A DNA stretch of 64,000 bases. It comes from an uncultured Pseudobdellovibrionaceae bacterium. Its GTDB lineage: Bacteria > Pseudomonadota > Alphaproteobacteria > Micavibrionales > Micavibrionaceae. Below, one piece after another: positions 46,810 through 63,830 of this stretch. Numbering within the stretch: position 1 is the stretch's first letter; the number at the start of each line of letters is the position of its first letter. The notes under the pieces are model-generated. The model was given only the letters and a program-made list of their open reading frames with translations, had not been told where the DNA came from and made no database searches. The DNA is taken from NCBI GenBank assembly GCA_964520985.1, contig CAZFPB010000002.1:150115-214114 (forward strand). Reading direction: 5' to 3'. The position numbers and the translations under genes were made by a program.

Positions 46810-46810
46810 A

Positions 46811-47583: not shown

Positions 47584-48102
47584 ATGATGCAACAATTGAC
47601 GAGTCGCAATCAAATATTGGATTGGTTGTTTGCTCATGATAAGGCTATACGTAGCAGACGCAAATATTTGATACGGTACGATGACACTGATAATACGTGG
47701 TATGTTTCAGTTAATGGTGATTTATCTCTTGTATATGCAGATATAACTTGTATTCCCTTCCGTCTGGATTTCATCCATGGCAGCTTTAATGCACAGCATA
47801 CAAAAATATCAAATGTGTCAGATCTCCCAGCTCATGTTTTTGGAAGTCTTGGCATTAGTCATACCAAAATAACTTCGTTACATAACATTCATCATTTTGT
47901 ACAATCATGTCACACGTTTGTATCCGGATCTGATCATGTCACTCATCTTCTTGGGTTGTTTTCAATTGAAAGATTGAATCGTGTAATAACAATTGAAAAT
48001 GATACTATGGAAATCATAAACAGACATTTACCCTCACGCAATATGTTAGCTTGTCAGGAAGAACTAATTGATGCTGGTTACGTCGAGTGTGCGAAACTAT
48101 GA
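47584..48102 (+). CDS. paralogous repeat-family protein (family A)
   Basis: C-terminal MLACQEELIDAGYVECAKL. Confidence 0.6.
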   Translation: MMQQLTSRNQILDWLFAHDKAIRSRRKYLIRYDDTDNTWYVSVNGDLSLVYADITCIPFRLDFIHGSFNAQHTKISNVSDLPAHVFGSLGISHTKITSLHNIHHFVQSCHTFVSGSDHVTHLLGLFSIERLNRVITIENDTMEIINRHLPSRNMLACQEELIDAGYVECAKL

Positions 48103-48833: not shown

Positions 48834-49498
48834 CAGAAGATGATAAACTATCTCAATTTGTTGAAAATGCTACAAAAGGAATTGAAGAACTTAATTTGGG
48901 TGATCATTATTACGTAATGAACGCTAAGATGTTAACCGTTGATTTCAGGCAATCAGTTGAGATTAAAGAGTACCACAAAGAAGAATTACCATTTCAGTTT
49001 GGACCGGTTGAAGGATCTTTTTCTATTGCAAATAGTAATATTAGAAATCTTAAAGGCATTCCTCCACATTGTTATGGGAGTGGAATTAGTATATTGGGTT
49101 GTGAGTTACAATCATTACAACATCACAGTTTTGATCCCAATTTTTCTACAGAAATAGTGATTGAAGGTGGGCATCTTACTAAAATAGATGTTCCGATTAA
49201 CTTACCTAAAGGTTATATTCGCATAACTCACACTGACATAACTAATTTGAAAGATATTCATAAAGTTCTGCGGGTTAGAGCATTAAGAATGTTTTCAAAT
49301 CCAATAAAATCTCATGTGCTTGGACTTCTGTTAATTCCTGAATTAACAAGTTTCACATTAGATGCATATTCTATAAATTTTGATGAAAGTCTTAGAGCAG
49401 CGAGTAAAATTTTACAAAAACATCTCGACACACGAAATATTCTTGCTTGTCAAGAAGATTTAATAGATGCTGGCTTATGCGAATTCGCTAAACTTTAA
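48830..49498 (+). CDS. paralogous repeat-family protein (family A)
   Basis: C-terminal ILACQEDLIDAGLCEFAKL. Confidence 0.6.
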   Translation: MTEDDKLSQFVENATKGIEELNLGDHYYVMNAKMLTVDFRQSVEIKEYHKEELPFQFGPVEGSFSIANSNIRNLKGIPPHCYGSGISILGCELQSLQHHSFDPNFSTEIVIEGGHLTKIDVPINLPKGYIRITHTDITNLKDIHKVLRVRALRMFSNPIKSHVLGLLLIPELTSFTLDAYSINFDESLRAASKILQKHLDTRNILACQEDLIDAGLCEFAKL

Positions 49499-50288: not shown

Positions 50289-51140
50289 ATGCACATCAAA
50301 GGGTATTCACCAAGTTTCTGTTTTATTGCTCCAACCGATTACTTACACTACGTTACTGGAGCCACTAACACCCATCTTGTCCTTGCACATTTAGTAGATA
50401 AAGATCCTGTTTACGCTGAATTTTATAAAAATCGTAGTGAACAAGGTGATCTTGTTATTTGTGATAACGGTGCATATGAACTTGGACACAGCTACGATCC
50501 TAATAAACTAATCGAACTTGGACGTAAATGTGGTGCTGAAGTATTAGTTCTTCCCGATTATCCATTTGAACAAGCCTCTAAAACGATAGCTGCAGCCGTT
50601 GAATACATTCCTTTGTTTAAACAAGCAGGTTTCAAAACGTTCTTTGTTCCTCAATCACAGAGAGGCGACTTAGAAGATTGGATTGCTGGATATACATGGG
50701 CTGCTCGTCATCCTGATATTGATTGCATTGGATATTCTATTCTTGGAATTCCAAATGCTTTGCCTGAAATTGAACCATCTTATGCTCGTGTAGTAATGGC
50801 ACAAATTCTTAACACTCGTAAAATCTATGCATATGATAAACACAGTCATTACTTAGGTCTTAATGCAGGTCCTGGATTAGAGATTCCATCGCTGTTGCGA
50901 ATGGGCGTACTTGATACTGTGGATTCATCTGGTCCAGTTTGGGCTGCAATTCTTGGTCACCAATACAGCGATGATTACGATAGCTTACAAGCTGGTCGTA
51001 AAATCAAAATGCCTGTGCAATTTGATCTCAAGTTAACGAAAGACTTGGATACGATGAAACGTATTCAAAATAATATAGCTAAAACCCTTGCTTTGTTTAA
51101 CGATGATGACAAACAATCTATTTGGTACGCACAAGAATAA
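50289..51140 (+). CDS. tRNA-guanine-transglycosylase-like protein (DpdA-like, putative 7-deazaguanine DNA transglycosylase)
   Basis: HYLGLNAGPGLEIPSLLRMGVLDTVDSSGPVWAAILGH parallels the TGT signature hLfGvGxPxDxxxxVxxGvDmFDcVxPTRxARxG. Confidence 0.5.
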   Translation: MHIKGYSPSFCFIAPTDYLHYVTGATNTHLVLAHLVDKDPVYAEFYKNRSEQGDLVICDNGAYELGHSYDPNKLIELGRKCGAEVLVLPDYPFEQASKTIAAAVEYIPLFKQAGFKTFFVPQSQRGDLEDWIAGYTWAARHPDIDCIGYSILGIPNALPEIEPSYARVVMAQILNTRKIYAYDKHSHYLGLNAGPGLEIPSLLRMGVLDTVDSSGPVWAAILGHQYSDDYDSLQAGRKIKMPVQFDLKLTKDLDTMKRIQNNIAKTLALFNDDDKQSIWYAQE

Positions 51141-51154
51141 TAAGGAAAGATGCC

Positions 51155-51727
51155 ATGGTTATAATGGAACATTTATGGAACCACCCAGCAGGTGGTTCTG
51201 CACACTTTGAGTATTCAAAACTAAAAGAACTTGAGTTGTTAACGTTAGTTGCTGACATGATGAAATGGCCGTCCGCTCGGGGGGATCGGCAAGGATACAA
51301 TCCTGGATACGACGGTTGGATTGGTGAAAAAACGTTCGAAGTTAAATTCCAATCCAGTGCAGAAATGATAATTGAATACGCTCGTTACGATGGAACTCCA
51401 TCTGGAATATCGTTATCGACAGCTGATTACTGGTTATTAGTAAACAGAAGTTCAATTAAAGCTAAACCAGCAGGCAAAGTTCGTTGTTTGCCAACCGCGA
51501 CTCTTCGGGATTATGTTGATCAATCCATTATTATGAATAACGTGCGAGTATATGAGCCATCAGCATCAGGCCCGGGTAGTCGTAATGTTACATTGGATCC
51601 GTGGAAATTAGGTGATGATGGTTGGATGTTCGATGTTCCAGCCATTCTTGAATTTGACAAAGTAATTGGATACAATTTGAATTTACATTCAATTAATCAA
51701 AACTATAAAAGACAACATACACTATAA
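51155..51727 (+). CDS. hypothetical protein
   Basis: Start at ATG 51155 (RBS AAGGAAAGA). Confidence 0.45.
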   Translation: MVIMEHLWNHPAGGSAHFEYSKLKELELLTLVADMMKWPSARGDRQGYNPGYDGWIGEKTFEVKFQSSAEMIIEYARYDGTPSGISLSTADYWLLVNRSSIKAKPAGKVRCLPTATLRDYVDQSIIMNNVRVYEPSASGPGSRNVTLDPWKLGDDGWMFDVPAILEFDKVIGYNLNLHSINQNYKRQHTL

Positions 51728-51737
51728 GGAAAATACC

Positions 51738-51971
51738 ATGTCTAAATATCAAATCAATGACGAAGAACAACAAAATATTAACAACTGGTTTGTGTATCAT
51801 GCACCTAAGAGTGATCAACTTAATCGTTATCAAGAACTGCGTGACGCAGGTAAACAACTTGCAGAAACTATTCTGAAAAACTGCCCGCCAAGTCCTGATC
51901 GTACTGTAGCTATTCGTAAGATTCGTGAAGCGATCATGGTTGCAAATGCTTCTATTGCTTGCTACGAATAA
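51738..51971 (+). CDS. hypothetical small protein
   Basis: 77 aa. Confidence 0.4.
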   Translation: MSKYQINDEEQQNINNWFVYHAPKSDQLNRYQELRDAGKQLAETILKNCPPSPDRTVAIRKIREAIMVANASIACYE

Positions 51972-51977
51972 GGAACT

Positions 51978-52298
51978 GTGATGGCAAATGTATTAACTAT
52001 GGAACGTGTTTTCGAGTTAATCCGTGAAGAGCGTGCTTATCAAGATAGCAAGTATGGTGTTGATAAAGAGCAATCGCTTGCTGGTTTTATTGCTGTTCTT
52101 CGTGCTGAACTTGTTGAAGCGGAAGAAGGATGGATTAAAAACAAAGTGGGGAGAAATTCCCCACTTCACGAGATTTTACAAGTTGCAGCAACTGCTGTTG
52201 CATGTCTTGAAAAATATGGAGCTACAGGTACAACGATTTCAACAGATGATCGTCAACCTTCATGGCCTTACGAAATTCTAAATCAAGATACTCCATGA
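51978..52298 (+). CDS. hypothetical protein
   Basis: 106 aa. Confidence 0.4.
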   Translation: MMANVLTMERVFELIREERAYQDSKYGVDKEQSLAGFIAVLRAELVEAEEGWIKNKVGRNSPLHEILQVAATAVACLEKYGATGTTISTDDRQPSWPYEILNQDTP

Positions 52299-52462
52299 GT
52301 AAATTACACGCTGAGTTGGTTTGGTTGCAAAATTATGAATTTTCGTTACTAACACAAGTTCGAATCGGTACATTATTCAAACAAGTGAAACGTAAATTCG
52401 AACTTGAATTAGACAACTCAGTTAAATTGAAATGGGTAAAAATAGATGGACTCAACGATTGA
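52262..52462 (+). CDS. small paralog (ELxWLxxYE N-terminal motif family), copy 1
   Basis: MSKLHAELVWLQNYEF; one of four tandem 66-82 aa ORFs sharing this N-terminus. Confidence 0.4.
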   Translation: MALRNSKSRYSMSKLHAELVWLQNYEFSLLTQVRIGTLFKQVKRKFELELDNSVKLKWVKIDGLND

Positions 52463-52643
52463 AACTTTGGCTGATGCCTTAACATATCTCAAGCAACATC
52501 ATGAACAACAGATGACGGAAGCAATTGCAACTGCTATTAAAGATGAAATAGATAGAGAACTGTTGAGAACACTAGTTGGAAAAGCCAATGATGCACAAAC
52601 GCGTACAACTGTGAGTCAGATATTGAATGACATCATTGAATGA
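52446..52643 (+). CDS. hypothetical small protein
   Basis: 65 aa. Confidence 0.35.
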   Translation: MDSTIETLADALTYLKQHHEQQMTEAIATAIKDEIDRELLRTLVGKANDAQTRTTVSQILNDIIE

Positions 52644-52842
52644 AGAATTGAGATGGGTACAATCGTACGATCTAAGAAAAACCATGGTAGATTTGTTTGG
52701 CGAAAAGTTTGATCAAATTACGCACGTATCATATGATGAAGATCAAGAGTGGATTAATGTTATGATTAAGCCTATCACGCCCGTCAGTCACATTATAATA
52801 AAAACCATAATATCTGGTGAGTCTAATGACATCAATCTTTAA
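52627..52842 (+). CDS. small paralog (ELxWLxxYE family), copy 2
   Basis: MTSLNEELRWVQSYDL. Confidence 0.4.
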   Translation: MTSLNEELRWVQSYDLRKTMVDLFGEKFDQITHVSYDEDQEWINVMIKPITPVSHIIIKTIISGESNDINL

Positions 52843-53017
52843 TGAGCTTGAATGGTTAGCAATATATGAGACGGGTAATAAGTCTTACCACCAACTAGCA
52901 ACAGAATGTATTGAAACCATTGTTGAAATGCGTGAATTAGTAACTGAACTAGAATCGTTGTTGGAAGAAATTACACCGACCTTAGCTGCCATGGAACAAT
53001 GGAGATTTGATATATGA
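52817..53017 (+). CDS. small paralog (ELxWLxxYE family), copy 3
   Basis: MSLMTSIFNELEWLAIYE. Confidence 0.4.
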   Translation: MSLMTSIFNELEWLAIYETGNKSYHQLATECIETIVEMRELVTELESLLEEITPTLAAMEQWRFDI

Positions 53018-53262
53018 GTACAATGGATGACGAATTAAAATGGTTAAATAACCGTGAATTCGAACAAAATTTAAAAAAGATACTGGAAACTGTACCGAAT
53101 ATAAAAATTGGCACATATAATCCATACCGATCGCAATTCATGTTAGATTACATTGAACCACCAAAAAATCAAAATCAAATGAATACACAATTGATTACAT
53201 ATACACATAAAATAAGAATAAATAAGGAACCATATGTTTATTTCCCCAAAGACTGCAATTGA
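53014..53262 (+). CDS. small paralog (ELxWLxxYE family), copy 4
   Basis: MSTMDDELKWLNNREF. Confidence 0.4.
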   Translation: MSTMDDELKWLNNREFEQNLKKILETVPNIKIGTYNPYRSQFMLDYIEPPKNQNQMNTQLITYTHKIRINKEPYVYFPKDCN

Positions 53263-53788
53263 AAATGGATGGATTACTCATCCAAAATGTAATTCAATCC
53301 AAGACTGGACAGATAATAAGTTTATAAGTCCAAATGCAATCGACTTCACTGCTGATGTATTGCATCGAGTAGTACATACAGATGTTGCTATCCTATCTGA
53401 AAAACGCAAAACGATGCGGTTACATTCCGAAGTTGAAATGATGATTGAAAAACGACCTAATGGAGAAAAATATTGGGTTATCGGTGCAGACACTGTACAC
53501 GATTTCACATCAGACATGTATGTCAAAGTTCCAAATGGCGTTGCTTGTTTGTTGATAGCTCGATCGACGTTGACACGTAACGGTGTGTTCATAACTTCTG
53601 GATTGTATGATCAAGGATTTGAAGGGCACATTGGTGGCACTATATATACGCCAGGTGGATCATTATGGCTTGCGCAGAATACACGAATTGGTCAAATTAT
53701 CTTCGTAGCATCTGAGGATAGTGGTGTGTTGTATGCTGGCGGTTGGAATCATGCTACTGGAACACATTATACCGGTGAAAAACTATAA
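53234..53788 (+). CDS. dCTP deaminase / dUTPase-fold protein
   Basis: LIARSTLTRNGVFITSGLYDQGFEGHIGGTIYTPGG...IGQIIF matches the dCTP-deaminase-family pattern (GxxDxGFxGxIxLExxN...xQ). Confidence 0.5.
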   Translation: MFISPKTAIENGWITHPKCNSIQDWTDNKFISPNAIDFTADVLHRVVHTDVAILSEKRKTMRLHSEVEMMIEKRPNGEKYWVIGADTVHDFTSDMYVKVPNGVACLLIARSTLTRNGVFITSGLYDQGFEGHIGGTIYTPGGSLWLAQNTRIGQIIFVASEDSGVLYAGGWNHATGTHYTGEKL

Positions 53789-53801
53789 TTAGGAGAAAAC
53801 C

Positions 53802-54041
53802 ATGGACAAACAAGTTATGATTAGTGCAAGTTTGTTAGGATTGATGATGGACTTGTTAGTTCGTCATTCTCAATTCAATCCAGCAAAAACAGAAGAAGAA
53901 CAAGATCTGCAACGTGCAACTAGTATTGCAATTTCAAAAGCAGAAGCTTCATTGACACAAGGTGTTGCCAATCCACGTTCATTCTCTGGTAGTGAAATTG
54001 GATCTTCATCTATAGATCCAACTAAAAGTAACTATCTGTGA
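53802..54041 (+). CDS. hypothetical small protein
   Basis: 79 aa. Confidence 0.35.
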   Translation: MDKQVMISASLLGLMMDLLVRHSQFNPAKTEEEQDLQRATSIAISKAEASLTQGVANPRSFSGSEIGSSSIDPTKSNYL

Positions 54042-54045
54042 GGTA

Positions 54046-54672
54046 ATGATGGGCAAGCCTCGCGGATATTCACAATACATGTTGGTTGCGGATTGCGAAA
54101 CGACTGGGATTGCATATGGATGTGATGATCCTAGCTTTGATCCGTCAACCAATCAGTACTATCAATCAGTTTCTTGGGGGTTGATTGTAGCTGAAACAGA
54201 AACCTTTGAACCAATTGATCAGTTGTACGTTGAAATCAAATGGGATGGAAAAAGCGTATGGGATAAAGAAGCTGAACAAGTTCATGGATTAACTAAGAAC
54301 TACCTTGACTTCTATGGTATCAATTCGCAGGAAGCCGTAATTGAAATTGGTAATCTAGTTTACAAATATTGGGGAGCCGATAAACCAATAATGTTGCTTG
54401 GTCATAACGTAGTATCGTTTGACAAACCTTTCTTGCAACGTTTAATGCGTAGTGAAGGGATTGATCTTCGATTTGGCAATCGTCACATTGATACATGTTC
54501 AATCGGTCTGGCAACGTTTGGTACATACAATTCCGACGACCTGTTTGAAGCAGCAGGACTTCCAAAACGTGATCCGTCACACCATAACGCATTGGAAGAT
54601 GCTAATTATTCATTATCGGCTGCGCGAACGGTAAAACAGTTATGGCAAGGATTGGTGGCTCCAGAACTATGA
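54046..54672 (+). CDS. DEDDh 3'-5' exonuclease (DnaQ-like)
   Basis: Exo I MLVADCETTG, Exo II LLGHNVVSFDKPFL, Exo III HHNALEDANYS. Confidence 0.75.
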   Translation: MMGKPRGYSQYMLVADCETTGIAYGCDDPSFDPSTNQYYQSVSWGLIVAETETFEPIDQLYVEIKWDGKSVWDKEAEQVHGLTKNYLDFYGINSQEAVIEIGNLVYKYWGADKPIMLLGHNVVSFDKPFLQRLMRSEGIDLRFGNRHIDTCSIGLATFGTYNSDDLFEAAGLPKRDPSHHNALEDANYSLSAARTVKQLWQGLVAPEL

Positions 54673-55130
54673 ACTACTTTGAACCAACATACAAAGAAAT
54701 TCATCAAGCATGTTTAGACATGGCAAATGAAATCGAACAACGCAATCTTGATTTGGATTATGTTGTTGCATTATGTCGAGGTGGCGCCATTCCTGGCGTT
54801 ATCTTGTCACACATGCTCAATCTTCCATTAATCATGCTTGATTATTCATCCACTGACGGAAAAGGTGATGATAAAAATCATAGCAATGACTTAATTGATA
54901 TTGCAAGTGGTTCGTCGTTTTTGTTAGTTGACGATATTGCTGATTCGGGAAAAACGATCAAAGAAATTACCGAACATTATGGTAATCCAGCTTGGGGTTG
55001 TCAGATTTATACTGCAGTGTTGTATTATAAATCTCCAAGCGAGATTGTTCGTCCCCATTTTGTTTGGCGCAATATAACACCATCTAGTCCATGGGTTGTA
55101 TTTCCTTGGGAGATTACAATTGGGTTATAA
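54669..55130 (+). CDS. phosphoribosyltransferase (type I PRT fold)
   Basis: Start at ATG 54669. FLLVDDIADSGKTIKEI is the PRPP-binding motif. Confidence 0.6.
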   Translation: MNYFEPTYKEIHQACLDMANEIEQRNLDLDYVVALCRGGAIPGVILSHMLNLPLIMLDYSSTDGKGDDKNHSNDLIDIASGSSFLLVDDIADSGKTIKEITEHYGNPAWGCQIYTAVLYYKSPSEIVRPHFVWRNITPSSPWVVFPWEITIGL

Positions 55131-55335
55131 TATCGTTGATGCTGCTAAAGACCTTATCACTACTGGTAAAGTCGAAATAGCGGATGATGAAACAATTCTC
55201 GAACGAATTAACACATGTGGGTCGTGTGAAATCCGTAATGCATTAACTAACATTTGTACTGCATGTGGATGTTTCATTCCAGCGAAAGCTAGATTGAAAA
55301 AATCAGAATGTCCGTTAGACTTGTGGGAAAAATAG
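55096..55335 (+). CDS. hypothetical Cys-rich small protein
   Basis: CGSCE...CTACGC; followed by hairpin GACTGGC-AGT-GCCAGTC (55339-55355). Confidence 0.4.
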   Translation: MYFLGRLQLGYNIVDAAKDLITTGKVEIADDETILERINTCGSCEIRNALTNICTACGCFIPAKARLKKSECPLDLWEK

Positions 55336-55353
55336 ACTGGCAGTGCCAGTCTA

Positions 55354-55980
55354 TTAACTGATATCCTTAATAGGATTGATTTCGCAAGTGAATCCTTTAT
55401 ATTTTCTGAAATCGTTTTCTCCAGAATAATCTACAGAATTGTCACCCAGTTTAAATTTGAATCCGAATTGCAACACCAAAGCGCGATTGCTTTGTCCCCA
55501 ACGATATACTACATAAAAGTGATAGAAACTACGTTTTGGAGTTGTGGCTTTTAATAATTGCCATCCAGTACTATTGAAATCATCACGAACATAATCTTGT
55601 CCATATAACTTTTCTATAGAAGTCGCTGTAGAAATATCACACGTTAGTTTGAACCGTTTGAAATTATTAGCTGGATTGCGAATAGCCGCCCACCACCACA
55701 TCGCTAGATACTTATTCCAGTTTCGCGATTTGTTCGCCCAATATCCACGCGTATCGCCTACTAATCCATCAATAGGATTGTCCCAGAGACTTAACCATGA
55801 CGGTAAACGAACTAACACCCAAGAACCATGTTGTGGGTACTGAGTGAATGGAATAGCTGGACCAGACGTTTTACGAAATGGAATTCCCACTGCTACTGCA
55901 AACAATCCAATAATCATCATTGGTAATTGAATAACTGTGCATATTAGAATTTGAATTGCTGCTTTCAAAATGTTTTTCAT
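55354..55980 (-). CDS. hypothetical membrane protein
   Basis: N-terminal hydrophobic segments; - strand, in the tail-fibre block. Confidence 0.45.
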   Translation of the reverse strand: MKNILKAAIQILICTVIQLPMMIIGLFAVAVGIPFRKTSGPAIPFTQYPQHGSWVLVRLPSWLSLWDNPIDGLVGDTRGYWANKSRNWNKYLAMWWWAAIRNPANNFKRFKLTCDISTATSIEKLYGQDYVRDDFNSTGWQLLKATTPKRSFYHFYVVYRWGQSNRALVLQFGFKFKLGDNSVDYSGENDFRKYKGFTCEINPIKDIS

Positions 55981-55989
55981 GATGTTCCC

Positions 55990-56619
55990 TTATTTTAATA
56001 ACTGTAATTGATGTTGTAGTTCGTCATTAAAGTCAAACGTTTTAAAAATGTTATACCGTTCAAGGTCGGATGTAGCATTTTTCATTTTTCGTTTAATGCT
56101 TGTTCTTACTGCAGCCGCCGCGATTAAATGTTCCTGACTTTTAATCTTAGCATTAAGTACTACTTGAGCAGCTTCAATTAATGTTAATCCATTAATGGCA
56201 ACTTCTGTCGCCGCTAACATTGGAAAATCTGTAATGATCGCTGTATTTGGATTAGCAATAACTCGTAATGCTTCTTCTAATTTTTGTTGGTATTCTAATA
56301 TTTGTCCAGGCGATGATGTGATTTCTTTTTCGCGAAGATGTTCAATTTGACGTTCAATTTGAATATCAATCAATTCAAGTGCTTTAGGGGATAAAGTAGC
56401 AACATATTCATCAAGTACAGCAGTTGGAGATATTCTTCTAAAATGCTGCAAGTAGAAATATTGTTCATCCTCGATTTTATCACGTCGTTGCATATATGGA
56501 ACTGCATTGTTAGGCAATGTTGTTCCGCCACCTGGCTGTACACTTTGTCCATCCCAATATACTAACTGTTGTACTTCATCATTGTCGACGATTGCATATG
56601 TTCCAATATCATGTTTCAT
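55990..56619 (-). CDS. hypothetical protein (possible tail-fibre accessory protein)
   Basis: Immediately downstream of the tail-fibre gene on the - strand; ATGA-type coupling. Confidence 0.35.
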   Translation of the reverse strand: MKHDIGTYAIVDNDEVQQLVYWDGQSVQPGGGTTLPNNAVPYMQRRDKIEDEQYFYLQHFRRISPTAVLDEYVATLSPKALELIDIQIERQIEHLREKEITSSPGQILEYQQKLEEALRVIANPNTAIITDFPMLAATEVAINGLTLIEAAQVVLNAKIKSQEHLIAAAAVRTSIKRKMKNATSDLERYNIFKTFDFNDELQHQLQLLK

Positions 56620-57971
56620 AATACATACCCTATAAGTTCAACTGTTGCCGAATCAAAACTGCCAGTAAAGCTAGAATTACCAACATACAGATCAAACACT
56701 TGTCCAGGAGCCAATTGACACAGTACTTGAGCTGCACTTGAGTTAGCGTCTCTCGATCCCCACGATCCGCCTTGATCCGCTGTATATCGTGGCCAGCCAG
56801 CGCTTCCACGCATCCAAATGTAACAAACTACATCTCCACCATCCGGTTGTGTTACCACATACGTTGTTTGCAATATTGCGTACTTAGCATTTACAGAACC
56901 AATATATGGTGTTATGTTAAATGTTGTCCAGTTAAGACCGTGAGCAAATCCCGGACTGCTCCAAAGCATGACAGGACTAATGAAAATTGGAGCTGATGAT
57001 GATGTTGCAATAGCACTATCAACATATTGTTTCGTTGCAGCATGCAATGGGTTAACAGGGTTTGCAGCTAACGTTAAATATCCGGTCATTGAATCGCCAG
57101 CTCTACTAACTTTATTCGCATTTACTACGTTAATAGTGCTATTAACAGCAGCAATTTGTCCGTCAACGTATGCTTTGTTAGTTAAATGAGCAGGTACAGT
57201 AGGAGCAAGTGGTGACGATACAGTTTGATAAAACGTAGCAGCACCCGTACTTCTTATTATTGTAAATGGTACATCTATAGTAACGCCGGCATCGTTAACA
57301 CGTCCTATTCCAAAATTACTTCCAGTGTTGCCACCTGATTCAACATCAGACATTGCGCCTACAGACCATCGAGATACGTTATTAGTTGTAAACGTTAATG
57401 GTCTATTAGTTCCGTTAGCGCCGTTTACAGTCAATCTAGGAGCAACTAACGGACCAGTCATCGTGTCACCAGCTTTCAATACAAAACGGGCATCTGATTG
57501 AGCTTTAGTGTAATAGTTTGTACCGACTAAAGCAGACGTAGTTAAATCTTGCCATACAGTTCCATCCCAATATGAGAACAGACCAGTAGTTGTGTTATAG
57601 TACATATCACCTACTGCGTCAGCAGGTGCTACTGGAGCACTCGAACCAAAACGTGTAGCAATTAATGATGCCCATCCAGGGTATACAGGATCGCTACTAA
57701 ACTTCTCGTCATATACACGAAGTCTCGACTGACCTTTGTTAAACCATAATTGACCGTTGATCGGTAACGATGGTGGAACGTTTCGACTAAAATTTTCCAA
57801 CATGTTAAGAATGTTTTGGTCCATGAATTGACCATAGTCAATTTTACCAGCACCTGGAAGAAGTATAGAAGTCGAATTGTCGACTTGCCCTGGCTGAATA
57901 ATGATTTGATGACCTGGATTCTCAGCAGCATCCGAAAATAAAACGTGGTAAATTGATGGTGTGATGGCCAT
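56616..57971 (-). CDS. tail fibre protein
   Basis: TNYYTKAQSDARFVLKAGDTMTGPL and NKAYVDGQIAAVN are characteristic tail-fibre motifs. Gly/Ser/Thr-rich C-terminal beta region. 451 aa. Confidence 0.65.
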   Translation of the reverse strand: MAITPSIYHVLFSDAAENPGHQIIIQPGQVDNSTSILLPGAGKIDYGQFMDQNILNMLENFSRNVPPSLPINGQLWFNKGQSRLRVYDEKFSSDPVYPGWASLIATRFGSSAPVAPADAVGDMYYNTTTGLFSYWDGTVWQDLTTSALVGTNYYTKAQSDARFVLKAGDTMTGPLVAPRLTVNGANGTNRPLTFTTNNVSRWSVGAMSDVESGGNTGSNFGIGRVNDAGVTIDVPFTIIRSTGAATFYQTVSSPLAPTVPAHLTNKAYVDGQIAAVNSTINVVNANKVSRAGDSMTGYLTLAANPVNPLHAATKQYVDSAIATSSSAPIFISPVMLWSSPGFAHGLNWTTFNITPYIGSVNAKYAILQTTYVVTQPDGGDVVCYIWMRGSAGWPRYTADQGGSWGSRDANSSAAQVLCQLAPGQVFDLYVGNSSFTGSFDSATVELIGYVL

Positions 57972-58133
57972 AAATATTTTTTCTCCAAATTATTACTTAT
58001 TTATCTAGTAATGCTGCCTCGATTTGATCAAACAGCATCCGGGTCATAATTTGTTATGACCTGCGTTGATTTGGAGTAACTACATGTCGTACTGTTATCT
58101 TTTTACCCAATAAATGTGACACGGGAGATCGCA

Positions 58134-58451
58134 ATGGGTCAAGATTTATCAGCCATCGACTTACAAAACTTACCACCTGAAACAGCGACAAAAAGAACGA
58201 AAGTGACCAAGAAAAGAGGCCGTAAAGGAAATAAAATCGTAACGGCTCTTAATGCCATACCAGAAATTCCTGTCGACTTTGATGATTTTGTTGCTCAACA
58301 TAAAGTGTCAGTTAATGTAATGAAACAACCGACTCGTTGGATCCATAAAATGGATGCCAAGGATGCTGAACGTATTGGTAAAGTTCACATCCAAAAAGAT
58401 AAAACCACTGGCAAAACAATGATCTGGCGTAGTAAGTCTGTAACAGCTTAA
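58134..58451 (+). CDS. hypothetical basic protein
   Basis: Start at ATG 58134 (RBS GGGAGA). Confidence 0.4.
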   Translation: MGQDLSAIDLQNLPPETATKRTKVTKKRGRKGNKIVTALNAIPEIPVDFDDFVAQHKVSVNVMKQPTRWIHKMDAKDAERIGKVHIQKDKTTGKTMIWRSKSVTA

Positions 58452-58488
58452 CTATAATTACATACTAACAATAATAAAGGATAACAAC

Positions 58489-59382
58489 ATGTCTAAATTT
58501 AAATGGGTGGAAACATTTCTTTCTGCTGAAGGTGAGGCCCAATATACTGGAAAAAATACAGTATACGTTCGCTTAACCAACTGCAACTTCAGTTGTAACG
58601 GATTCAACAATAAAGAAAATCTGATTGCAACTGATATTGACGTGTTAGGATTTAATCCTAGCGAATACGAAAACATCTATCACATGCCAGCAATTACTCG
58701 TGGATGTGATTCTGCATATGCATGGGATCCAAAGTTCTCACATATGTGGAAATCTGGCAATGAAGATGAACTTGCTCGTGAATTAGTTGACTTGATTCCT
58801 CACAAAAAATGGATCCATCCATACACTGGAATGGATTATGCGTTAAGTATTACTGGGGGTGAACCAAGCCTTCATGCAAAACAACTACCAGCATTACTTC
58901 ATCATCCGCTGCTTGATGACTGTCTGCATGTCATCTTTGAAACTAACTGTTCAGTTCCATTGACCATTAATTTCATTTCACAAATCAATGCATGGCTGTG
59001 CAAGAATCCACGTCGTCGTTGGACATGGTCTAATAGTCCAAAACTGTCGTCGAGTGGTGAGCCTCGTGATAAAGCGATTCGTCCTGACATCGCATTGCGA
59101 CAAGCAATGACTGCTGGTAAAACAGGTTTGAACCAAGTGGATCAATACTTTAAATTTGTTGTACATGATGAAGCGGACGTTGATGAAGTAGAATCTGTGA
59201 TGCAACAATATTATGCGGCAGGTGTAAATCGACTGGCCCCTGTATGGTTGATGCCTGCAAGTTGCACACACGAACAACAGCAACAAATTGCTCAGAACAT
59301 TGCAACTTTATGCATGGAACGTGGTTACTTGTTCTCATATCGTTTGCAAAATGCGTTATGGGAAAATGCTGTTGGTCGTTAA
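58489..59382 (+). CDS. QueE-like 7-carboxy-7-deazaguanine synthase (putative)
   Basis: N-terminal FLSAEGEAQYTGKNTVYVRLTNCNFSCNGF parallels QueE (F.S.QGEG...G.P..FIRL.GC...C). Confidence 0.45.
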   Translation: MSKFKWVETFLSAEGEAQYTGKNTVYVRLTNCNFSCNGFNNKENLIATDIDVLGFNPSEYENIYHMPAITRGCDSAYAWDPKFSHMWKSGNEDELARELVDLIPHKKWIHPYTGMDYALSITGGEPSLHAKQLPALLHHPLLDDCLHVIFETNCSVPLTINFISQINAWLCKNPRRRWTWSNSPKLSSSGEPRDKAIRPDIALRQAMTAGKTGLNQVDQYFKFVVHDEADVDEVESVMQQYYAAGVNRLAPVWLMPASCTHEQQQQIAQNIATLCMERGYLFSYRLQNALWENAVGR

Positions 59383-59395
59383 TAAATGATATTAA

Positions 59396-59417
59396 AGAGG
59401 GAGAAAAACCTCCCTCT
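59396..59417 (+). other. hairpin AGAGGGAG-AAAAAC-CTCCCTCT (weak terminator)
   Basis: 8-bp stem after the QueE-like gene; no clear T-run. Confidence 0.3.
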
Positions 59418-59442
59418 TGTACTAATAAGGAAAAGAACCAAA

Positions 59443-59876
59443 TGACATACTATAATGATAAACCAATTTATAGAGCTGCCATGGTTCCGTATGTTGTTGA
59501 AGATGGACAAATCTGGATGTTATTTCAGAAACCAAGTGATCCAACTTATGGTGGTGACAGTTATCAGTTAGCAAAAGGTAAAGTTGAAGAAGGTGAAACT
59601 GCTGAGGAAGCAGCAGTACGTGAAGCACAAGAAGAAGTAGGGTTATTTCGTGGAAACGTTGTCAAGGGACCTGAACATGTTGGATTATTTCTTGGGCGTA
59701 CTGATGTATATGTGTGCAAAGTGAAAGATCGTGATCTATTTGGTTTGCCAAGTGACGAAACTGAAAGCACGAAATGGATGACGTTAGAAGATTTTCTCAA
59801 TGAAGGTCGTTTGTTGCACAAACCAGTAGTTCAAGCATGCATACGAGCAATTGAACGGTTAGAAACTCAAGACTGA
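59443..59876 (+). CDS. Nudix hydrolase
   Basis: Start at ATG 59443 (RBS AAGGAAAAG). GKVEEGETAEEAAVREAQEEVG is a Nudix box (GX5EX7REUXEEXGU). Confidence 0.7.
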
Positions 59877-59889
59877 AAGAAGTGATGGA

Positions 59890-60531
59890 ATGACACACAG
59901 ATCAGGGCACCGTCGAAGCAAAATTAATGGTTGGTGTCATTCCATACAATTAAAGGACTTCTGTATTCTGTATAACACACACTTACAAGATTTTGTAATT
60001 AATGTGCATGAGTCTGTGGACTTACCGAAAGAGGTTGATCAACTTCCGTATCGATTTGGTGTAATCAAAGGCGGATTTAATTGTAGTTATTCTAAAATAA
60101 AATCATTCGAAAACTTTCCTACAATAATTTCCGGTAAATTGACTTTAAATCATACGCATATTAATCCAACAACATTAACTCACATGATTCATGCTGATCG
60201 TATTATTTGGCGCGCTGGATTCAATAGAGCAACTGAAACATTTGCATATCCTGACGGTATTGATCATTGTTTTCAGTATTTTGATACACGATATTTCGAA
60301 TGTAATGTTCACCCACATTTGTTAAAAATGATGTTGATCAAAAATCTGGTTAAGGTTTATGTATTAGATATTGCTTCAATCAATATAGACAATACAAAGA
60401 AAGTGTTTGATAACGTATTGTCTGAAAGTACATGTACAAAAATTATTAACGACCATATTGAAACTAAAGATATTCTGGTAGCTCAAGAACAGTTAATTGA
60501 TGCAGGTTTTGTAAAATTTGCAAAGTGGTGA
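59890..60531 (+). CDS. paralogous repeat-family protein (family A)
   Basis: C-terminal ILVAQEQLIDAGFVKFAKW. Confidence 0.55.
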   Translation: MTHRSGHRRSKINGWCHSIQLKDFCILYNTHLQDFVINVHESVDLPKEVDQLPYRFGVIKGGFNCSYSKIKSFENFPTIISGKLTLNHTHINPTTLTHMIHADRIIWRAGFNRATETFAYPDGIDHCFQYFDTRYFECNVHPHLLKMMLIKNLVKVYVLDIASINIDNTKKVFDNVLSESTCTKIINDHIETKDILVAQEQLIDAGFVKFAKW

Positions 60532-60534
60532 TAT

Positions 60535-61089
60535 ATGACATCCAAATTTATAACTGACTATAGCAAAATAAGTCAGTGGTTAATGGACAATAATATTCCT
60601 GGTGATAAATGTATCATCAACATCGACGGAACTGTTGATGTATCAACAGACGTTGACATTAGTGGCCGTAATCTTGAGCGAATTCCTATTAAATTTGGAA
60701 TAGTTTGGGGAAAGTTTTTATGCCATGGAAATAAATTAAAGTCGTTGGCAGGAGCACCAGATAAAGCAACGGTTCTGTTCTGTCAAAATAATGCACTAAC
60801 AACGTTAAATGATATTGTTATTGAGTGTAATTTAATGTTGTGTCATAACAACCCAATTACTTCATATAAAGATGTTATCAAACACATCAAATCAATACAT
60901 GGAGTGATGTTACCAAATAATAATATTCCGATACTGCAATGGTTTTTAATTGATTCGTTAAAAGAAATTGAGGTTGAACATAACACTGTTGTAAATGAAA
61001 TACTTAAAAGACATATTATTTCGAAAGACATATTAGCGTGTCAAGACGAATTAATCGATTCAGGTTTTACAGATTGGGCTAGATTGTGA
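60535..61089 (+). CDS. paralogous repeat-family protein (family A)
   Basis: C-terminal ILACQDELIDSGFTDWARL. Confidence 0.6.
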   Translation: MTSKFITDYSKISQWLMDNNIPGDKCIINIDGTVDVSTDVDISGRNLERIPIKFGIVWGKFLCHGNKLKSLAGAPDKATVLFCQNNALTTLNDIVIECNLMLCHNNPITSYKDVIKHIKSIHGVMLPNNNIPILQWFLIDSLKEIEVEHNTVVNEILKRHIISKDILACQDELIDSGFTDWARL

Positions 61090-61802
61090 GGTACCGGGAT
61101 CATTTTATTGCAAGCAGTTGGGTATACCAACTTATTGACGGTTGGATTACTAAAAATAAATTAAACGATACAATGTATGCAGTTTTAAAAGAACCATTTA
61201 GAGATTTATTATTTCATGATATTCGTATAGATGATTTTGAAATAGTTCTTACGAAACAAGATATTTGGTTAACCAATAATCCTGATGAGCTTTATGGAAT
61301 TCCTTTTAAATTACCTAACGTTCCTGGAGCATTTATAGCTGTAGATTCTCGAATGGAAAGTTTATGCAATTGTCCTGATGAAGTACAAGGTGCATTCGTG
61401 TGCGGATCTTTATACTTACGGTCACTGTTTGGAATCCCTAAAGTTATGCAAAACTGTGAAATTTTAGAGATTAATCGCGAGTTAACATATAGAAATATTC
61501 ATAAACAAGTTAATGTAGCGGATAGTGTAACTCTTCCTCATCATCCACGTCCGGGAATATTAAATTGGTTGCTAATACCATCAATACAAAGCATACATTT
61601 CCATGATTATTCGTTGGAACCAAACCCTGATCCTAAGATATATGGATGGCGCTCAGGTGATAAAGATCCTCGTCAAATATTCACTGATGGTGACCGCCAT
61701 TTAATTGAAAGTATATTGAATCGACACATTCATACAAAAGATATACTAACTGCTCAAGAAGAATTAATTGATGCTGGATTTGCTAGATGGGCTAGATTGT
61801 AA
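61086..61802 (+). CDS. paralogous repeat-family protein (family A)
   Basis: C-terminal ILTAQEELIDAGFARWARL. Confidence 0.6.
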   Translation: MRYRDHFIASSWVYQLIDGWITKNKLNDTMYAVLKEPFRDLLFHDIRIDDFEIVLTKQDIWLTNNPDELYGIPFKLPNVPGAFIAVDSRMESLCNCPDEVQGAFVCGSLYLRSLFGIPKVMQNCEILEINRELTYRNIHKQVNVADSVTLPHHPRPGILNWLLIPSIQSIHFHDYSLEPNPDPKIYGWRSGDKDPRQIFTDGDRHLIESILNRHIHTKDILTAQEELIDAGFARWARL

Positions 61803-62440
61803 TGGGCCGCGATGTTTCTTATCTATTCAGCACACCATTAAATAAATGGCTTCGGGATAATGGATGTAAGGAGCGCGTTGCATGTTGGTTAACTGATGAC
61901 AACACATATCATGTTACAACAGGTCCCGAGGGTATTTGTTTAAACGAGATTGATATTAATTCAATACCATTTATCATTGATGCAGTTCATGGTGATTTTG
62001 TTTGTCTTCATAGTCCCTCATCTACTCTAGTAGGTTGTCCACGAATAGTAAATGGTAACTTTCGTTTTGGGTCTAATGAATTAATTTCGCTAAGAGGATT
62101 GCCTCAAGTTGTTCGTGGAGGAGAATGTGATATTCGTGCAGTTGGCCCAGGAGTATCGTACTTAGACATCCATCATTATATTACAGTTGAAGGTGGGGCT
62201 TCACTTCCTGTTCGAGAGGATACTTCAGGGTTATTATATTGGTTATTGGTGCCTAATATTACTCAATTTTGCTTTTATACCCCACGGTCTCACATAATAT
62301 TAGGAGACCGATTACAAGAATCGTTTGAGATTTGTCTTAAACTTGAAACAATCTTTAATGCCCATGTAAAAACAAAAGATATTCTAGCAGCTCAAGATGA
62401 ATTAATTGATGCTGGACTTGGTGTGTATGCAACAATGTAG
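61802..62440 (+). CDS. paralogous repeat-family protein (family A)
   Basis: C-terminal ILAAQDELIDAGLGVYATM. Confidence 0.6.
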   Translation: MGRDVSYLFSTPLNKWLRDNGCKERVACWLTDDNTYHVTTGPEGICLNEIDINSIPFIIDAVHGDFVCLHSPSSTLVGCPRIVNGNFRFGSNELISLRGLPQVVRGGECDIRAVGPGVSYLDIHHYITVEGGASLPVREDTSGLLYWLLVPNITQFCFYTPRSHIILGDRLQESFEICLKLETIFNAHVKTKDILAAQDELIDAGLGVYATM

Positions 62441-62500
62441 GAAACTGCATTAAATATAATAAAATCATAAATACATCACCAAGTTATGTGGAGAATAATA

Positions 62501-63181
62501 ATGGATCTCAACCGAATCAGAAAATTGGCTGGACTTACCGAATCGTACGATGATGACACAATGACACGTTCTGAACGTGAGCTTGCCGACATGGCAGATC
62601 GTGATCTTAAAAAGAAAGGAATCAATGTTAAGGTTGATCCTGATAAAGACATGGAAAGATTAGCCAAAAAAGTAAAGAAGAAAGAAGAAAAAGAATTGGA
62701 TGACGATGCTGAAGAAGCTAAACCAGAAGAAAAGAAAGACAATGCTGAAGAAGCTAAAGCAAAAAGTGACACTAAACCAGAAGAAAAGAAAGATGATAGT
62801 GGTAAACCAGCTCGTGGTGAACATCGTGCACAAGCTCGTGAATACATGAAAGATCATGCTGGTAAAGGTCGTGCTGCATTTATGGCATTTGCTAAATCAA
62901 TCGGGATGGGTGTTGGCAATGCAACTCATTTCTGGCAACACAATCGCCCAGCGAGCCCTGTTAAAGGCGTATCTGAATGGTTTGTGTTAGTTCATCCATC
63001 ACTACCACACTATCAGCTTGCTGAAAACTGTGAAATGGGAACATATCAATGGGTTGATGCATATAGCAATATTGAACCTTTAGCATTTACTAAGTTAGAA
63101 GAAGCTACCAAATTAGCTGATCACTTACTGCAATGGAAATCTTGTGTTGCTGATATTCAAAAAGTTGTTGATGAAGAGTAA
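62501..63181 (+). CDS. hypothetical protein with Lys/Glu-rich low-complexity segment
   Basis: Start at ATG 62501 (RBS GGAGA). Contains KKKEEKELDDDAEEAKPEEKKD repeats. Confidence 0.45.
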   Translation: MDLNRIRKLAGLTESYDDDTMTRSERELADMADRDLKKKGINVKVDPDKDMERLAKKVKKKEEKELDDDAEEAKPEEKKDNAEEAKAKSDTKPEEKKDDSGKPARGEHRAQAREYMKDHAGKGRAAFMAFAKSIGMGVGNATHFWQHNRPASPVKGVSEWFVLVHPSLPHYQLAENCEMGTYQWVDAYSNIEPLAFTKLEEATKLADHLLQWKSCVADIQKVVDEE

Positions 63182-63220
63182 TACCAAGATTGACAAATAT
63201 GTAAAATGTAATACAATAAA

Positions 63221-63247
63221 GGGAGACGAAAGTCTCCCTTTCTTTTT
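63221..63247 (+). terminator. rho-independent terminator
   Basis: GGGAGAC-GAAA-GTCTCCC followed by TTTCTTTTT. Confidence 0.7.
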
Positions 63248-63263
63248 ATAGGATAATAACAAT

Positions 63264-63830
63264 ATGATTCTTAAATCAACCAAATCATTTCATAAACTAC
63301 CATGTGCTCATGCTCAATTTCAAGATTTCAACGGTCCTTGTAAATCATTCCACGGATACGATCGTTCAGTGACATTTGAATTTTCTGGTGAACCAGATCA
63401 ATATGGATGGATTGTCGGTTTTGGCCATCTTAAACCAGTTCGTGCATTTCTCGAATATTATTTTGATCATACAGCAGTAGCTCCAGCTAACGATCCTCGT
63501 CTTGATTCTATCAAACAAGCTGCAGAATCAGGATTATTTGATTTGCGTGTTCTTCCATATGGTGTGTCAATGGAAATGTCATCCGTATTCATTTGGGAAC
63601 AAGTAAACCCATATATCCATGGTATTTCTGATGGTAGAGCATGGATTTCCAAAGTTGAATGTCGCGAACACGATTCTAACAGTGCGTTTATTGAAGTGCC
63701 ACACCGTACTCTATCAATGTGTGCAAAAGCTGCTCAGGCATGGGATTCAAAACAATATTTGATTCAAAAATCTGAGTGGGATTACGTCCCTGTTCACAAA
63801 CTCGGAATTCAATCTGGCCTCGTCAAATAA
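63264..63830 (+). CDS. 6-pyruvoyl-tetrahydropterin-synthase / QueD-family protein (putative)
   Basis: PCAHAQF, CKSFHGYD (compare CxxLHGHxY), GWIVGFGHLK and FDHTAV (compare LDHxxLN) follow the PTPS/QueD pattern. Confidence 0.5.
   Translation: MILKSTKSFHKLPCAHAQFQDFNGPCKSFHGYDRSVTFEFSGEPDQYGWIVGFGHLKPVRAFLEYYFDHTAVAPANDPRLDSIKQAAESGLFDLRVLPYGVSMEMSSVFIWEQVNPYIHGISDGRAWISKVECREHDSNSAFIEVPHRTLSMCAKAAQAWDSKQYLIQKSEWDYVPVHKLGIQSGLVK

Follow-up and report, generated by a model that had tools for sequence, protein, structure and literature searches.

A loosened DpdA3-type module for predicted 7-deazaguanine DNA modification in an uncultured jumbo phage

Introduction

The occurrence of three genes of the 7-deazaguanine pathway, kilobases apart on a stretch of apparently viral DNA, has led us to wonder whether these genes form one system and, if so, which nucleic acid they modify and which base they install. 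The stretch, hereafter the window, covers 64,000 nucleotides of contig CAZFPB010000002.1 (GenBank assembly GCA_964520985.1, positions 150,115 to 214,114 of the forward strand), deposited under an uncultured Pseudobdellovibrionaceae bacterium, and the genes encode a transglycosylase-like protein (ORF1), a QueE-like protein (ORF2) and a QueD-like protein (ORF3). A first-pass annotation made from the sequence alone had read them as dispersed pathway genes of the kind by which phages insert 7-deazaguanines into their DNA, with tRNA as an alternative target. All three open reading frames (ORFs) stand as it had delimited them (Table 1), and their PHROG, Pfam and DpdA3 matches uphold the reading of them as 7-deazaguanine genes of the phage DNA-modification kind. 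The explanation that we consider probable is that the module serves DpdA3-type 7-deazaguanine hypermodification of the DNA of a ~330-kb phage and reproduces, in loosened form, an operon found compact in other phages. Such DNA makes phages resistant to many restriction enzymes, which matters for phage therapy, sequencing, cloning and enzyme discovery.

Because the proteins of the window are on record on one 330,120-bp contig (NCBI and Logan), the window would represent about one fifth of a jumbo-phage genome. The sequence that we examined amounts to 84 kb of this ~330-kb genome, that is, the window and 10 kb on each side, the flanks being taken from Logan contigs. The window is AT-rich (GC 33-41%) and transcribed almost wholly rightward. 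A megablast search of GenBank phages with 14 kb gave no match at the DNA level, so that no close relative with annotation is at hand.

Results

The transglycosylase-like protein

As judged from its homologs and its modelled structure, ORF1 is a DpdA3-family enzyme of TGT fold, and neither a canonical DpdA nor a tRNA-guanine transglycosylase (TGT). The C-terminal TGT signature quoted in the first-pass annotation is indeed present and runs from L189 to G223 (Y-L189-G-L-N-A-G-P195 ... G-V-L-D-T-V-D212-S-S-G-P216-V-W-A-A-I-L-G223); its call of a DpdA-like protein likewise stands, with the DpdA3 family taking the place of canonical DpdA or TGT. The tblastn homologs of ORF1 include proteins of Rhizobium phage RHph_I1_18 (41%), Vibrio phage D479 (38%) and Aeromonas phage Ahp1 (36%), and in the phiST group of Cellulophaga phages the search reached 25% identity (E 7e-6). 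The phiST match is CGPG_00065, the protein named DpdA3 by Cui et al. 2023 (PMC10516641), and homology to this founding member places ORF1 in the DpdA3 family. A hidden Markov model (HMM) built from the close relatives of the window only gave 56 bits to the phiST DpdA3 and, with filters off, no score to E. coli Tgt or to the canonical DpdA of Stenotrophomonas phage Moby. The family is very large, with 683 matches at 90% clustering and, by a profile search, 2980 representatives at 50% clustering.

Because a profile search of the PDB sequences with ORF1 found no TGT, a comparison of structures was needed. The AlphaFold model (AF2, 26 relatives; pLDDT 92.5, pTM 0.90) is an eight-stranded alpha/beta barrel, and the top 46 Foldseek matches in the PDB were all Z. 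mobilis TGT (E about 2e-8), in keeping with the TGT/DpdA TIM-barrel fold. Five residues (Y42, D59, R167, H187 and D212) are invariant across 127 diverse family members, and N60, E64, D90 (at least 90% conserved), L189, G190 and E198 are nearly so; ORF1 retains all the family-invariant residues. In the model the C-terminal ends of the strands, the usual catalytic face of such a barrel, carry D59 (strand 3), D90 (strand 4), H187/G190 (strand 7) and D212 (strand 8). The catalytic aspartates taken as reference were TGT D102, D156 and D280 (Z. mobilis numbering), and the hhalign runs against single E. coli Tgt (2.8%) and Moby DpdA (33%) sequences, both of low probability, were used for the motif register only.

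A bacterial TGT of the tRNA type was considered for ORF1 and rejected, as the protein has neither the zinc subdomain nor the tRNA-binding C-terminal region: the motif CxCxxC...H is absent, only 4 Cys being present, and the 283 residues leave out the C-terminal extensions of TGT or of the archaeal arcTGT. The isoelectric point was also tried as an indicator of DNA binding and did not discriminate.

Two variations were observed among the relatives. A DUF3310 domain is fused at the C-terminus of EVB91_073 of RHph_I1_18 (8019-9287 of locus L004) and of 5 of the 127 members. A QueC-containing cluster carries, after FolE, two tandem DpdA3-family paralogs (L033, 6548-8231, and also L034; E 3e-54 and 3e-33 against the family HMM), so that the transglycosylase of this lineage may be heteromeric or duplicated.

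The QueE- and QueD-like proteins

By its motifs and its homologs, ORF2 can be assigned to the phage-type QueE. It matches PHROG 2076 ('QueE-like radical SAM') over its full length (2.9e-53); five NCBIfam QueE models align by their N-terminus with residues 4-37, which bears out the QueE N-terminus proposed in the first-pass annotation, and the body of the B. subtilis QueE model aligns with residues 73-244. The annotation had also found the third cysteine of the radical-SAM cluster not obvious. This cysteine is nevertheless there: it is C73, displaced by an insertion of ~34 residues, and an alignment of five phage QueE proteins (window, Moby, Ahp1, D479 and phiST) shows no variation at C32, C36 or C73. 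The spacing is C32-x3-C36-x36-C73 in ORF2 versus Cx3Cx7C in phiST QueE. Besides the three-Cys cluster, ORF2 has the N-terminal 'E.F.S.(Q/E)GEG...G' and the 'CD(S/T).(Y/F)(A/T)W' motifs of QueE, its 'GCDSAYAWD' aligning with 'WCDSAFTWD' of B. subtilis QueE. It is 49-50% identical to the Moby QueE, whose gene has FolE, QueC and DpdA as neighbours, and in more than 20 viral contigs homologs of ORF2 (E 1e-66 to 1e-104) directly adjoin QueD and FolE; through these homologs, it answers to the only radical-SAM gene of the cluster, beside QueD and FolE.

ORF3 appears to be a QueD of the phiST subtype. The PTPS/QueD motifs claimed for it are backed by Pfam PTPS (54 bits for a gathering cutoff of 22.4; 2e-14) and by PHROG 2389 'QueD-like' (2e-30). 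ORF3 retains the catalytic Cys and the first His, and shares the motif C-x3-H-G-Y with the phiST QueD (31% identical) and with the PTPS protein of RHph_I1_18 (54% identical). We also considered whether ORF3 could be DpdL, the predicted decarboxylase of 7-carboxy-7-deazaguanine (CDG), whose proposed product is 7-deazaguanine and which has a QueD-like T-fold with LxxxHRHxF in place of CxxxHGH (PMC10516641). This was rejected, the catalytic Cys being kept in ORF3 and the HRHxF motif being absent. Just upstream of the QueD gene (63190-63241) lies a near-consensus sigma-70-like promoter (TTGACA-16-TACAAT), and directly after it come a 10-bp GC-rich hairpin and a T-rich tail; over the region, promoter and terminator scans gave counts not above chance.

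Gene order around the module

The dispersal of the three genes, which the first-pass annotation had set against a single operon, is real, the QueE and QueD genes starting 8.2 and 13 kb after the start of ORF1; the same genes form a compact operon elsewhere. The loci recovered with the QueD of the window as seed show a recurrent arrangement QueE-(PRT)-QueD-FolE-DpdL-DpdA3-like-(dNMP kinase)-DCD-like, where PRT stands for phosphoribosyltransferase, which occupies ~5 kb in L051. A relative on a 362-kb JGI contig, whose ORF1 is 60% identical, has the order DpdA3-like, DCD, exonuclease, PRT, DUF6171, QueE (radical SAM) and NUDIX; the same backbone was found in fifteen IMG/VR loci, and the gene order is kept on contigs of 110 to 362 kb. 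The QueD gene directly follows the NUDIX gene in L016 and L024 (order QueE-NUDIX-QueD), and QueE-NUDIX pairs occur in L012, L022 and L028. The extra spacing in the window has three sources: a block of minus-strand genes before QueE, four paralogs between NUDIX and QueD (both in Table 1), and three paralogs just upstream of ORF1 (47584-49498). We read the dispersal as secondary, the paralog arrays and the minus-strand block having presumably pushed apart the genes of an operon whose compact form is seen elsewhere.

Distribution of DpdL, QueC and FolE

Partner genes were counted within 6 kb of the DpdA3-family gene in 60 loci, a roughly non-redundant sample that is biased by its seeding. DpdL was present in 44 of the 60 loci and QueC in nine; no locus had both, which makes them mutually exclusive DpdA3 partners in this sample, and seven had neither. 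FolE was found in 35 loci, QueE in 34, QueD in 32, a DCD-like gene in 42 and PRT in 21. The QueC count needs the E. coli QueC as query, since Moby QueC alone gives 0/60, and the E. coli query in turn misses Moby QueC (phmmer). Of the seven loci with neither gene, one is the window, five are its closest relatives of the same type (L009, L012, L015, L018 and L022, examined over roughly 8-10 kb on each side) and the last is a contig that ends 1.5 kb after the gene. In nine jumbo relatives the DpdA3-like gene is immediately preceded by a DpdL homolog with HRHxF, and such homologs also adjoin it in Ahp1, D479 and RHph_I1_18.

The statement of the first-pass annotation that QueC and FolE are missing from the window was confirmed with Pfam and with phmmer/HMM searches, and it extends to the 10-kb flanks. 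The Pfam scan covered all window ORFs of at least 75 amino acids (aa), with gene calls on the 10 kb upstream and downstream; in the same range it found neither QueF nor a second TGT, and QueA, QueG and QueH were not found in the window. Five phage FolE sequences used as phmmer/HMM queries had no match in the window. For QueC, the E. coli and Moby queries and a two-sequence HMM were negative in the window and flanks and positive in nine other DpdA3 loci. A DpdL HMM found nothing in the window, L002 or L005, and a DpdL-specific DNA pattern that matches all nine DpdL-containing jumbo relatives had 0 matches in the window, even with 1 mismatch allowed.

We found no group-specific substitution between the DpdL-associated and the DpdL-less transglycosylases, and the two groups interleave in a neighbour-joining distance tree; nothing in the sequences therefore points to a substrate pocket that has changed. 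To judge from these alignments, an unchanged pocket slightly favours a DpdL, or an equivalent enzyme, encoded elsewhere in the genome.

The DpdL family itself (HRHxF...SCE...EDGENG) is abundant in metagenomes, with at least 8000 candidates per protein search, many of them from Tara ocean samples. Since a DpdA3-family gene lies within 6 kb in only 18 of 80 DpdL loci (L056-L135), DpdL would often be paired with other or undetected transglycosylases.

Neighbouring genes

The module appears to have partners beyond the three genes first listed, namely a DCD/dUTPase-like protein, a 6-oxopurine PRT, a DEDD exonuclease, a DUF6171 protein and a NUDIX hydrolase (Table 1).

Table 1. Predicted genes of the module and genes lying among them (positions in the window; aa, amino acids; E values unless stated otherwise)
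Feature	Coordinates	Strand	Match or remark
DpdA3-family guanine transglycosylase-like protein (ORF1), TGT/DpdA TIM-barrel fold, 283 aa	50289..51140	+	
201-aa protein, function unassigned, directly downstream of the transglycosylase; module membership uncertain	51122..51727	+	No Pfam match; weak match in L009 at the same position (3e-05)
106-aa conserved protein	51978..52298	+	PHROG 2831; same relative position in L009, L012, L013, L015 (E 1e-26 to 1e-28)
dCTP-deaminase/dUTPase-fold dNTP pyrophosphatase-like protein	53234..53788	+	Pfam DCD 2.2e-11, dUTPase 1.4e-06
DEDD (RNase T / DNA polymerase exonuclease-like) 3'-5' exonuclease	54046..54672	+	PHROG 192 8.8e-17; Pfam RNase_T 4.5e-4, below cutoff
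6-oxopurine (guanine/xanthine-type) phosphoribosyltransferase (PRT)	54642..55130 (Logan start 54669)	+	Pfam Pribosyltran 4.8e-13
DUF6171 small Cys-rich protein	55096..55335	+	Pfam DUF6171 3.3e-08; PHROG 13558
Three genes: DUF7338 membrane protein, 209-aa protein, 451-aa fibre-like protein; not pathway	55354..57971	-	Inserted between PRT/DUF6171 and QueE
111-aa conserved protein before QueE	58116..58451	+	Homologs just upstream of QueE in L009, L012, L014, L015, L016, L024; no PHROG match
QueE-like radical-SAM 7-carboxy-7-deazaguanine synthase (ORF2), 297 aa	58489..59382	+	PHROG 2076; split NCBIfam QueE match
NUDIX hydrolase	59442..59876	+	Pfam NUDIX 9.2e-16; downstream of QueE
Four tandem members of a multi-copy paralog family ('..CQEELIDAG..AKL'); not pathway	59890..62440	+	Between NUDIX and QueD
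QueD-like 6-carboxytetrahydropterin synthase (ORF3), phage subtype CxxxHGY, 188 aa	63264..63830	+	Pfam PTPS, PHROG 2389

The DCD/dUTPase-fold protein also matches the NCBIfam dUTPase model PRK02253 (3.5e-12, below cutoff), and its homolog in Ahp1 is AHP1_701; such a gene lies at most 1.5 kb downstream of the DpdA3-family gene in 28 of the 60 loci. The DEDD exonuclease is kept in 14 of the 16 loci of jumbo-phage relatives. The PRT matches the NCBIfam XPRT model (8.5e-13, below cutoff), its nearest solved homologs being Sulfolobus GpT-2 (5e-14) and E. coli XGPRT, and it occurs inside compact QueE-PRT-QueD-FolE-DpdL-DpdA3 operons in L030, L032, L053 and L054. The minus-strand block has no counterpart between PRT and QueE in L009, L012, L015 and L022, where the spacing is shorter.

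DUF6171 was found in DpdL-less relatives only (L009, L012, L013, L015, L018 and L022) and is absent from nine DpdL-containing jumbo relatives. A similar distribution was observed for a 263-aa protein without family match (46766-47557), which is present in all six loci of the window type (DpdL-less) and which the nine DpdL-containing jumbo relatives all lack. The two patterns may reflect lineage only, or genes tied to the missing step. The 359-aa ORF after QueD and the 236-aa ORF before ORF1 were also tried as missing enzymes and set aside, neither having a family match.

Other features of the window

At least 13 paralogous proteins of ~170-250 aa share a near-identical C-terminal motif '..(D/N)IL.CQEELIDAG....AKL' and also contain repeated 'G.F.C..N.L.SL.G.P'-like units; they have no Pfam match. 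Their genes lie at 48-674, 24894-26092, 36654-39227 (minus strand), 47584-49498 and 59890-62440, and the deazaguanine module is bordered and broken up by two of these tandem arrays. A further set of four small tandem ORFs (66-82 aa), with an N-terminal 'EL.W(L/V)..YE' in common, lies at 52262-53262, after the transglycosylase and before the dUTPase-fold gene.

The window is rich in tRNA genes, as had been noted, with 16 by ARAGORN and 12 by Rfam. They are dense between 13542 and 23809, where several calls are unusually long (tRNA-Ile 91 nt, tRNA-Asn 90 nt), and Rfam matches a 139-nt tRNA at 17786-17924 that is not among the ARAGORN calls; these long calls may be intron-containing or otherwise interrupted tRNA genes. 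A tRNA at 42409-42481 has the anticodon CTA, which reads the amber codon (labelled tRNA-Pyl by ARAGORN; Rfam tRNA 56.9 bits), and is a possible suppressor tRNA in a jumbo phage. The Rfam scan returned tRNAs only, and no preQ1 or other riboswitch.

It is worthy to note, finally, that the window carries a large set of NAD-salvage and RNA-maintenance genes (790-4193, 7265-8353, 28956-36312 and 43161-44348). On the NAD side, these are NAMPT, a nucleoside 2-deoxyribosyltransferase-like protein and NADAR; on the RNA side, a CCA-adding enzyme, HAD-SAK2, PTH2, two RNA ligases and a Ro60/TROVE protein with a VWA domain.

Discussion

Proposed pathway and alternatives

How could the genes of the window act together? 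With the established preQ0 pathway and the work of Cui et al. 2023 (PMC10516641) as guides, one may propose that GTP is converted to dihydroneopterin triphosphate (H2NTP) by a GTP cyclohydrolase I (FolE), either that of the host or one encoded elsewhere in the phage genome. QueD would turn H2NTP into 6-carboxytetrahydropterin (CPH4), and QueE would turn CPH4 into the free base CDG. The DpdA3-family enzyme would then exchange guanine in the phage DNA for CDG or a CDG-derived base, presumably by means of an aspartate nucleophile as in TGT, for which D212 is a candidate, and the modified DNA would resist guanine-dependent restriction enzymes. The PRT probably recycles the guanine released by the exchange into GMP, and nucleotide pools or DNA ends are the probable targets of the dUTPase-fold protein, the NUDIX hydrolase and the DEDD exonuclease.

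Several points weigh against this reading. ORF1 has no Pfam (TGT PF01702, DpdA PF23859) or NCBIfam match at E<=0.1, and only 5 of the 127 family members show weak matches to the TGT clan (one to TGT at 0.0054, two to DpdA at 0.0073 and two to DUF6610 at 0.027); in PHROG, ORF1 matches weakly, and function-unknown families only. Because every curated TGT/DpdA HMM failed, the DpdA3 assignment rests on structure and homology. The hhalign alignment with E. coli Tgt pairs D90 with the Asp of 'FDEC' and D212 with the nucleophile Asp of 'DMFDCV', at a probability of only 2.8%. The first-pass annotation had made its reading depend on family HMMs, and these divide: ORF3 passes Pfam PTPS, as said above, and both ORF2 and ORF3 stay far below the NCBIfam equivalog cutoffs, ORF2 with respect to QueE (46.7 bits versus 260, TIGR03963, the match being split by the insertion) and ORF3 with 27.5 bits for a QueD cutoff of 89. 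In ORF3, moreover, the motif reads C26-KSF-H30-G-Y32, with Tyr in place of the second zinc-binding His, and is not CxxxHGH. No FolE, DpdL or QueC gene was found in the 84 kb, so that the pathway as seen is incomplete at both ends. Finally, the activity of DpdA3 has never been reconstituted, the attempts by Cui et al. having failed (PMC10516641).

The nature of the neighbouring genes invites a pre-replicative alternative, in which the 7-deazaguanine base would be made into a modified dNTP and incorporated by the phage polymerase. The conversion may be carried out by the PRT with phosphoribosyl pyrophosphate, or by the DpdA3-like enzyme acting on dGMP or dGTP, and the dUTPase-fold and NUDIX proteins may clear the competing dGTP. 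A PRT, a dUTPase-fold dNTPase and sometimes a dNMP kinase are indeed found within or beside compact DpdA3 operons, and the PRT is of the guanine/xanthine type; however, this enzyme is equally explained by the salvage of released guanine and is absent from 39 of the 60 DpdA3 loci, and T4-like phages ordinarily carry genes for dUTPase and dNMP kinase. The phiST cluster also includes a MazG/dUTPase-like gene. It is also true that replacement reaches ~100% in DpdA3 phages versus 30% or less with the other DpdA classes, and that the nucleoside of 7-amido-7-deazaguanine (ADG) occurs in the cytoplasm of cells infected by Campylobacter phage CP220 (PMC10516641); a modified-dGTP route was explicitly left open by Hutinet 2019 and had been proposed earlier for Campylobacter phages. 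Yet no dedicated reductase or kinase for the modified nucleotide has been identified, and the TGT/DpdA fold, the best structural match being a DNA transglycosylase, fits base exchange in DNA most simply. We consider the nucleotide-level route quite unlikely, though the recurrence of a guanine-type PRT and a dUTPase-fold enzyme offers a handle on whether the full replacement in DpdA3 phages takes place after or before replication.

A tRNA target, by which QueD and QueE would raise the level of queuosine precursor for a TGT-like protein modifying host or phage tRNAs, is suggested by the 16 tRNA genes, which include tRNA-Asn(GTT), of a class that is a queuosine substrate, by the many tRNA-maintenance genes of the window and by the fact that TGT-fold enzymes were first known as tRNA enzymes. 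This alternative, raised in the first-pass annotation, fares badly when confronted with ORF1 itself, which lacks the zinc site and the TGT/arcTGT extensions and whose family profile scores the phiST DpdA3 and not E. coli Tgt; DpdL, which adjoins the family in 44 of 60 loci, has a proposed product, 7-deazaguanine, known from DNA and not from tRNA, and none of QueA, QueG, QueH, QueF and QueC is encoded in the window. We regard it as highly improbable. One might also see in the module a remnant, in a lineage that lost DpdL, FolE and QueC and whose remaining genes are decaying or serve an unrelated nucleotide metabolism: the window type is the only group of the 60-locus sample that lacks DpdL as well as QueC beside the DpdA3-family gene, and its module is broken up by insertions. 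But the three ORFs are intact, ORF1 keeps every family-invariant residue, the gene order is kept on the 110 to 362 kb contigs, and the catalytic and cluster residues are kept in five or more relatives that are ~60% identical, which speaks for purifying selection. A decaying remnant is very unlikely in our view, and DNA hypermodification of the DpdA3 type remains the explanation that we prefer.

Which base would then be installed? The answer depends on two enzymes, DpdL and QueC, the latter giving preQ0-type bases. That DpdL is encoded elsewhere in the genome and that the base is dDG (7-deaza-dG) is a real possibility, if short of an even chance; that QueC is encoded elsewhere, with a preQ0-derived base, seems unlikely. 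A genome with neither, whose DNA would carry the deoxynucleoside of CDG (dCDG) or a base made by an unrecognised enzyme, is doubtful but deserves attention. It is tempting to extend the latter idea to the whole window-type lineage, that is, the phage and five or more related contigs (28 to 362 kb), which would truly lack DpdL and QueC and install CDG or a CDG derivative from an unrecognised enzyme; we hold this to be somewhat unlikely. The lineage-specific candidates for such an enzyme may be DUF6171, the 106-aa protein and the 263-aa protein. If this were true, a third branch of DpdA3 chemistry would stand beside those of DpdL (dDG) and QueC (preQ0-type); and if both genes are absent genome-wide, dCDG or a new base is to be expected in the DNA, and the module would delimit where to seek the missing enzyme.

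Comparison with known systems

A literature search on DpdA3 or DpdL, within the searchable library, returned nothing beyond Cui et al. 2023 (PMC10516641). The comparison included bacterial TGT and the DpdA (PDB 7ui4) that belongs to the bacterial Dpd restriction-modification system. Their aspartates stand at motif positions equivalent to those of ORF1, according to the low-probability hhalign alignments; unlike them, ORF1, with about 16% identity, is 130 residues shorter, has no zinc site and is missed by the Pfam DpdA/TGT models. Bacterial DpdA, in addition, works with DpdB and inserts preQ0 at low frequency.

Among DpdA3 systems, Flavobacterium phage immuto_2-6A has DpdA3 with QueC and QueF (PMC10516641). 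The QueC-containing DpdA3 loci of our sample resemble the window in that a DpdA3-family gene goes with QueE and QueD and without DpdL, and they also have FolE; they differ in having QueC within about 3 kb of the transglycosylase, whereas the 84 kb hold none, and their transglycosylases form a separate branch nearer to phiST. The DNA of Campylobacter phage CP220 (Firehammervirus) contains ADG in full replacement (dADG); the phage has DpdA3, QueD and QueE but no QueC, and its pathway stops at CDG, whose amidation would need a further enzyme (PMC10516641). By this description it is of the same DpdA3 type as the window. Its pathway genes are likewise scattered, in a T4-like genome, and its QueE is a distant homolog of ORF2 (about 27% identical); its DpdA3 was not located in the 24 kb of CP220 sequence that we examined.

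The cultured phages with the closest ORF1 homologs (36-41%) are Aeromonas phage Ahp1_CNU-2021, Vibrio phage D479 and Rhizobium phage RHph_I1_18, whose genes are annotated as hypothetical in the records and for which we found no report of DNA chemistry. In all three a DCD/dUTPase-like gene follows the transglycosylase, as in the window, and in D479 the genes are scattered as well, QueE being about 140 kb from the transglycosylase. They have DpdL and FolE beside the DpdA3-like gene, unlike the window.

The closest described system is that of the Cellulophaga phage phiST, in whose DNA dG is fully replaced by dDG and whose cluster comprises FolE, QueD, QueE, DpdL and DpdA3 without QueC (PMC10516641). 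The two share the transglycosylase family (ORF1 being 25% identical to CGPG_00065, at 56 bits), the CxxxHGY subtype of QueD, a QueE family with a displaced third Cys, a dNTP pyrophosphatase-type gene and the absence of QueC, from the phiST cluster on the one hand and from the window and its flanks on the other. In contrast, phiST has both DpdL and FolE, and the window neither within 84 kb; the genes of the window extend over 13.5 kb versus about 4 kb; its dNTPase has the trimeric dUTPase/DCD fold versus MazG/all-alpha; its QueE has a 36-residue spacer; and PRT, DEDD exonuclease, DUF6171 and NUDIX are extra partners. The phages themselves differ in size, roughly 330 kb for the jumbo phage versus 79 kb. 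What appears unusual in the window is the loosened arrangement, the 36-residue spacer in the QueE cluster motif and the absence nearby of both enzymes that decide on the base. For the rest, its gene content makes it a further member of the known DpdA3 systems, and it would place a large uncultured clade of jumbo phages of roughly 300-360 kb in the DpdA3 class.

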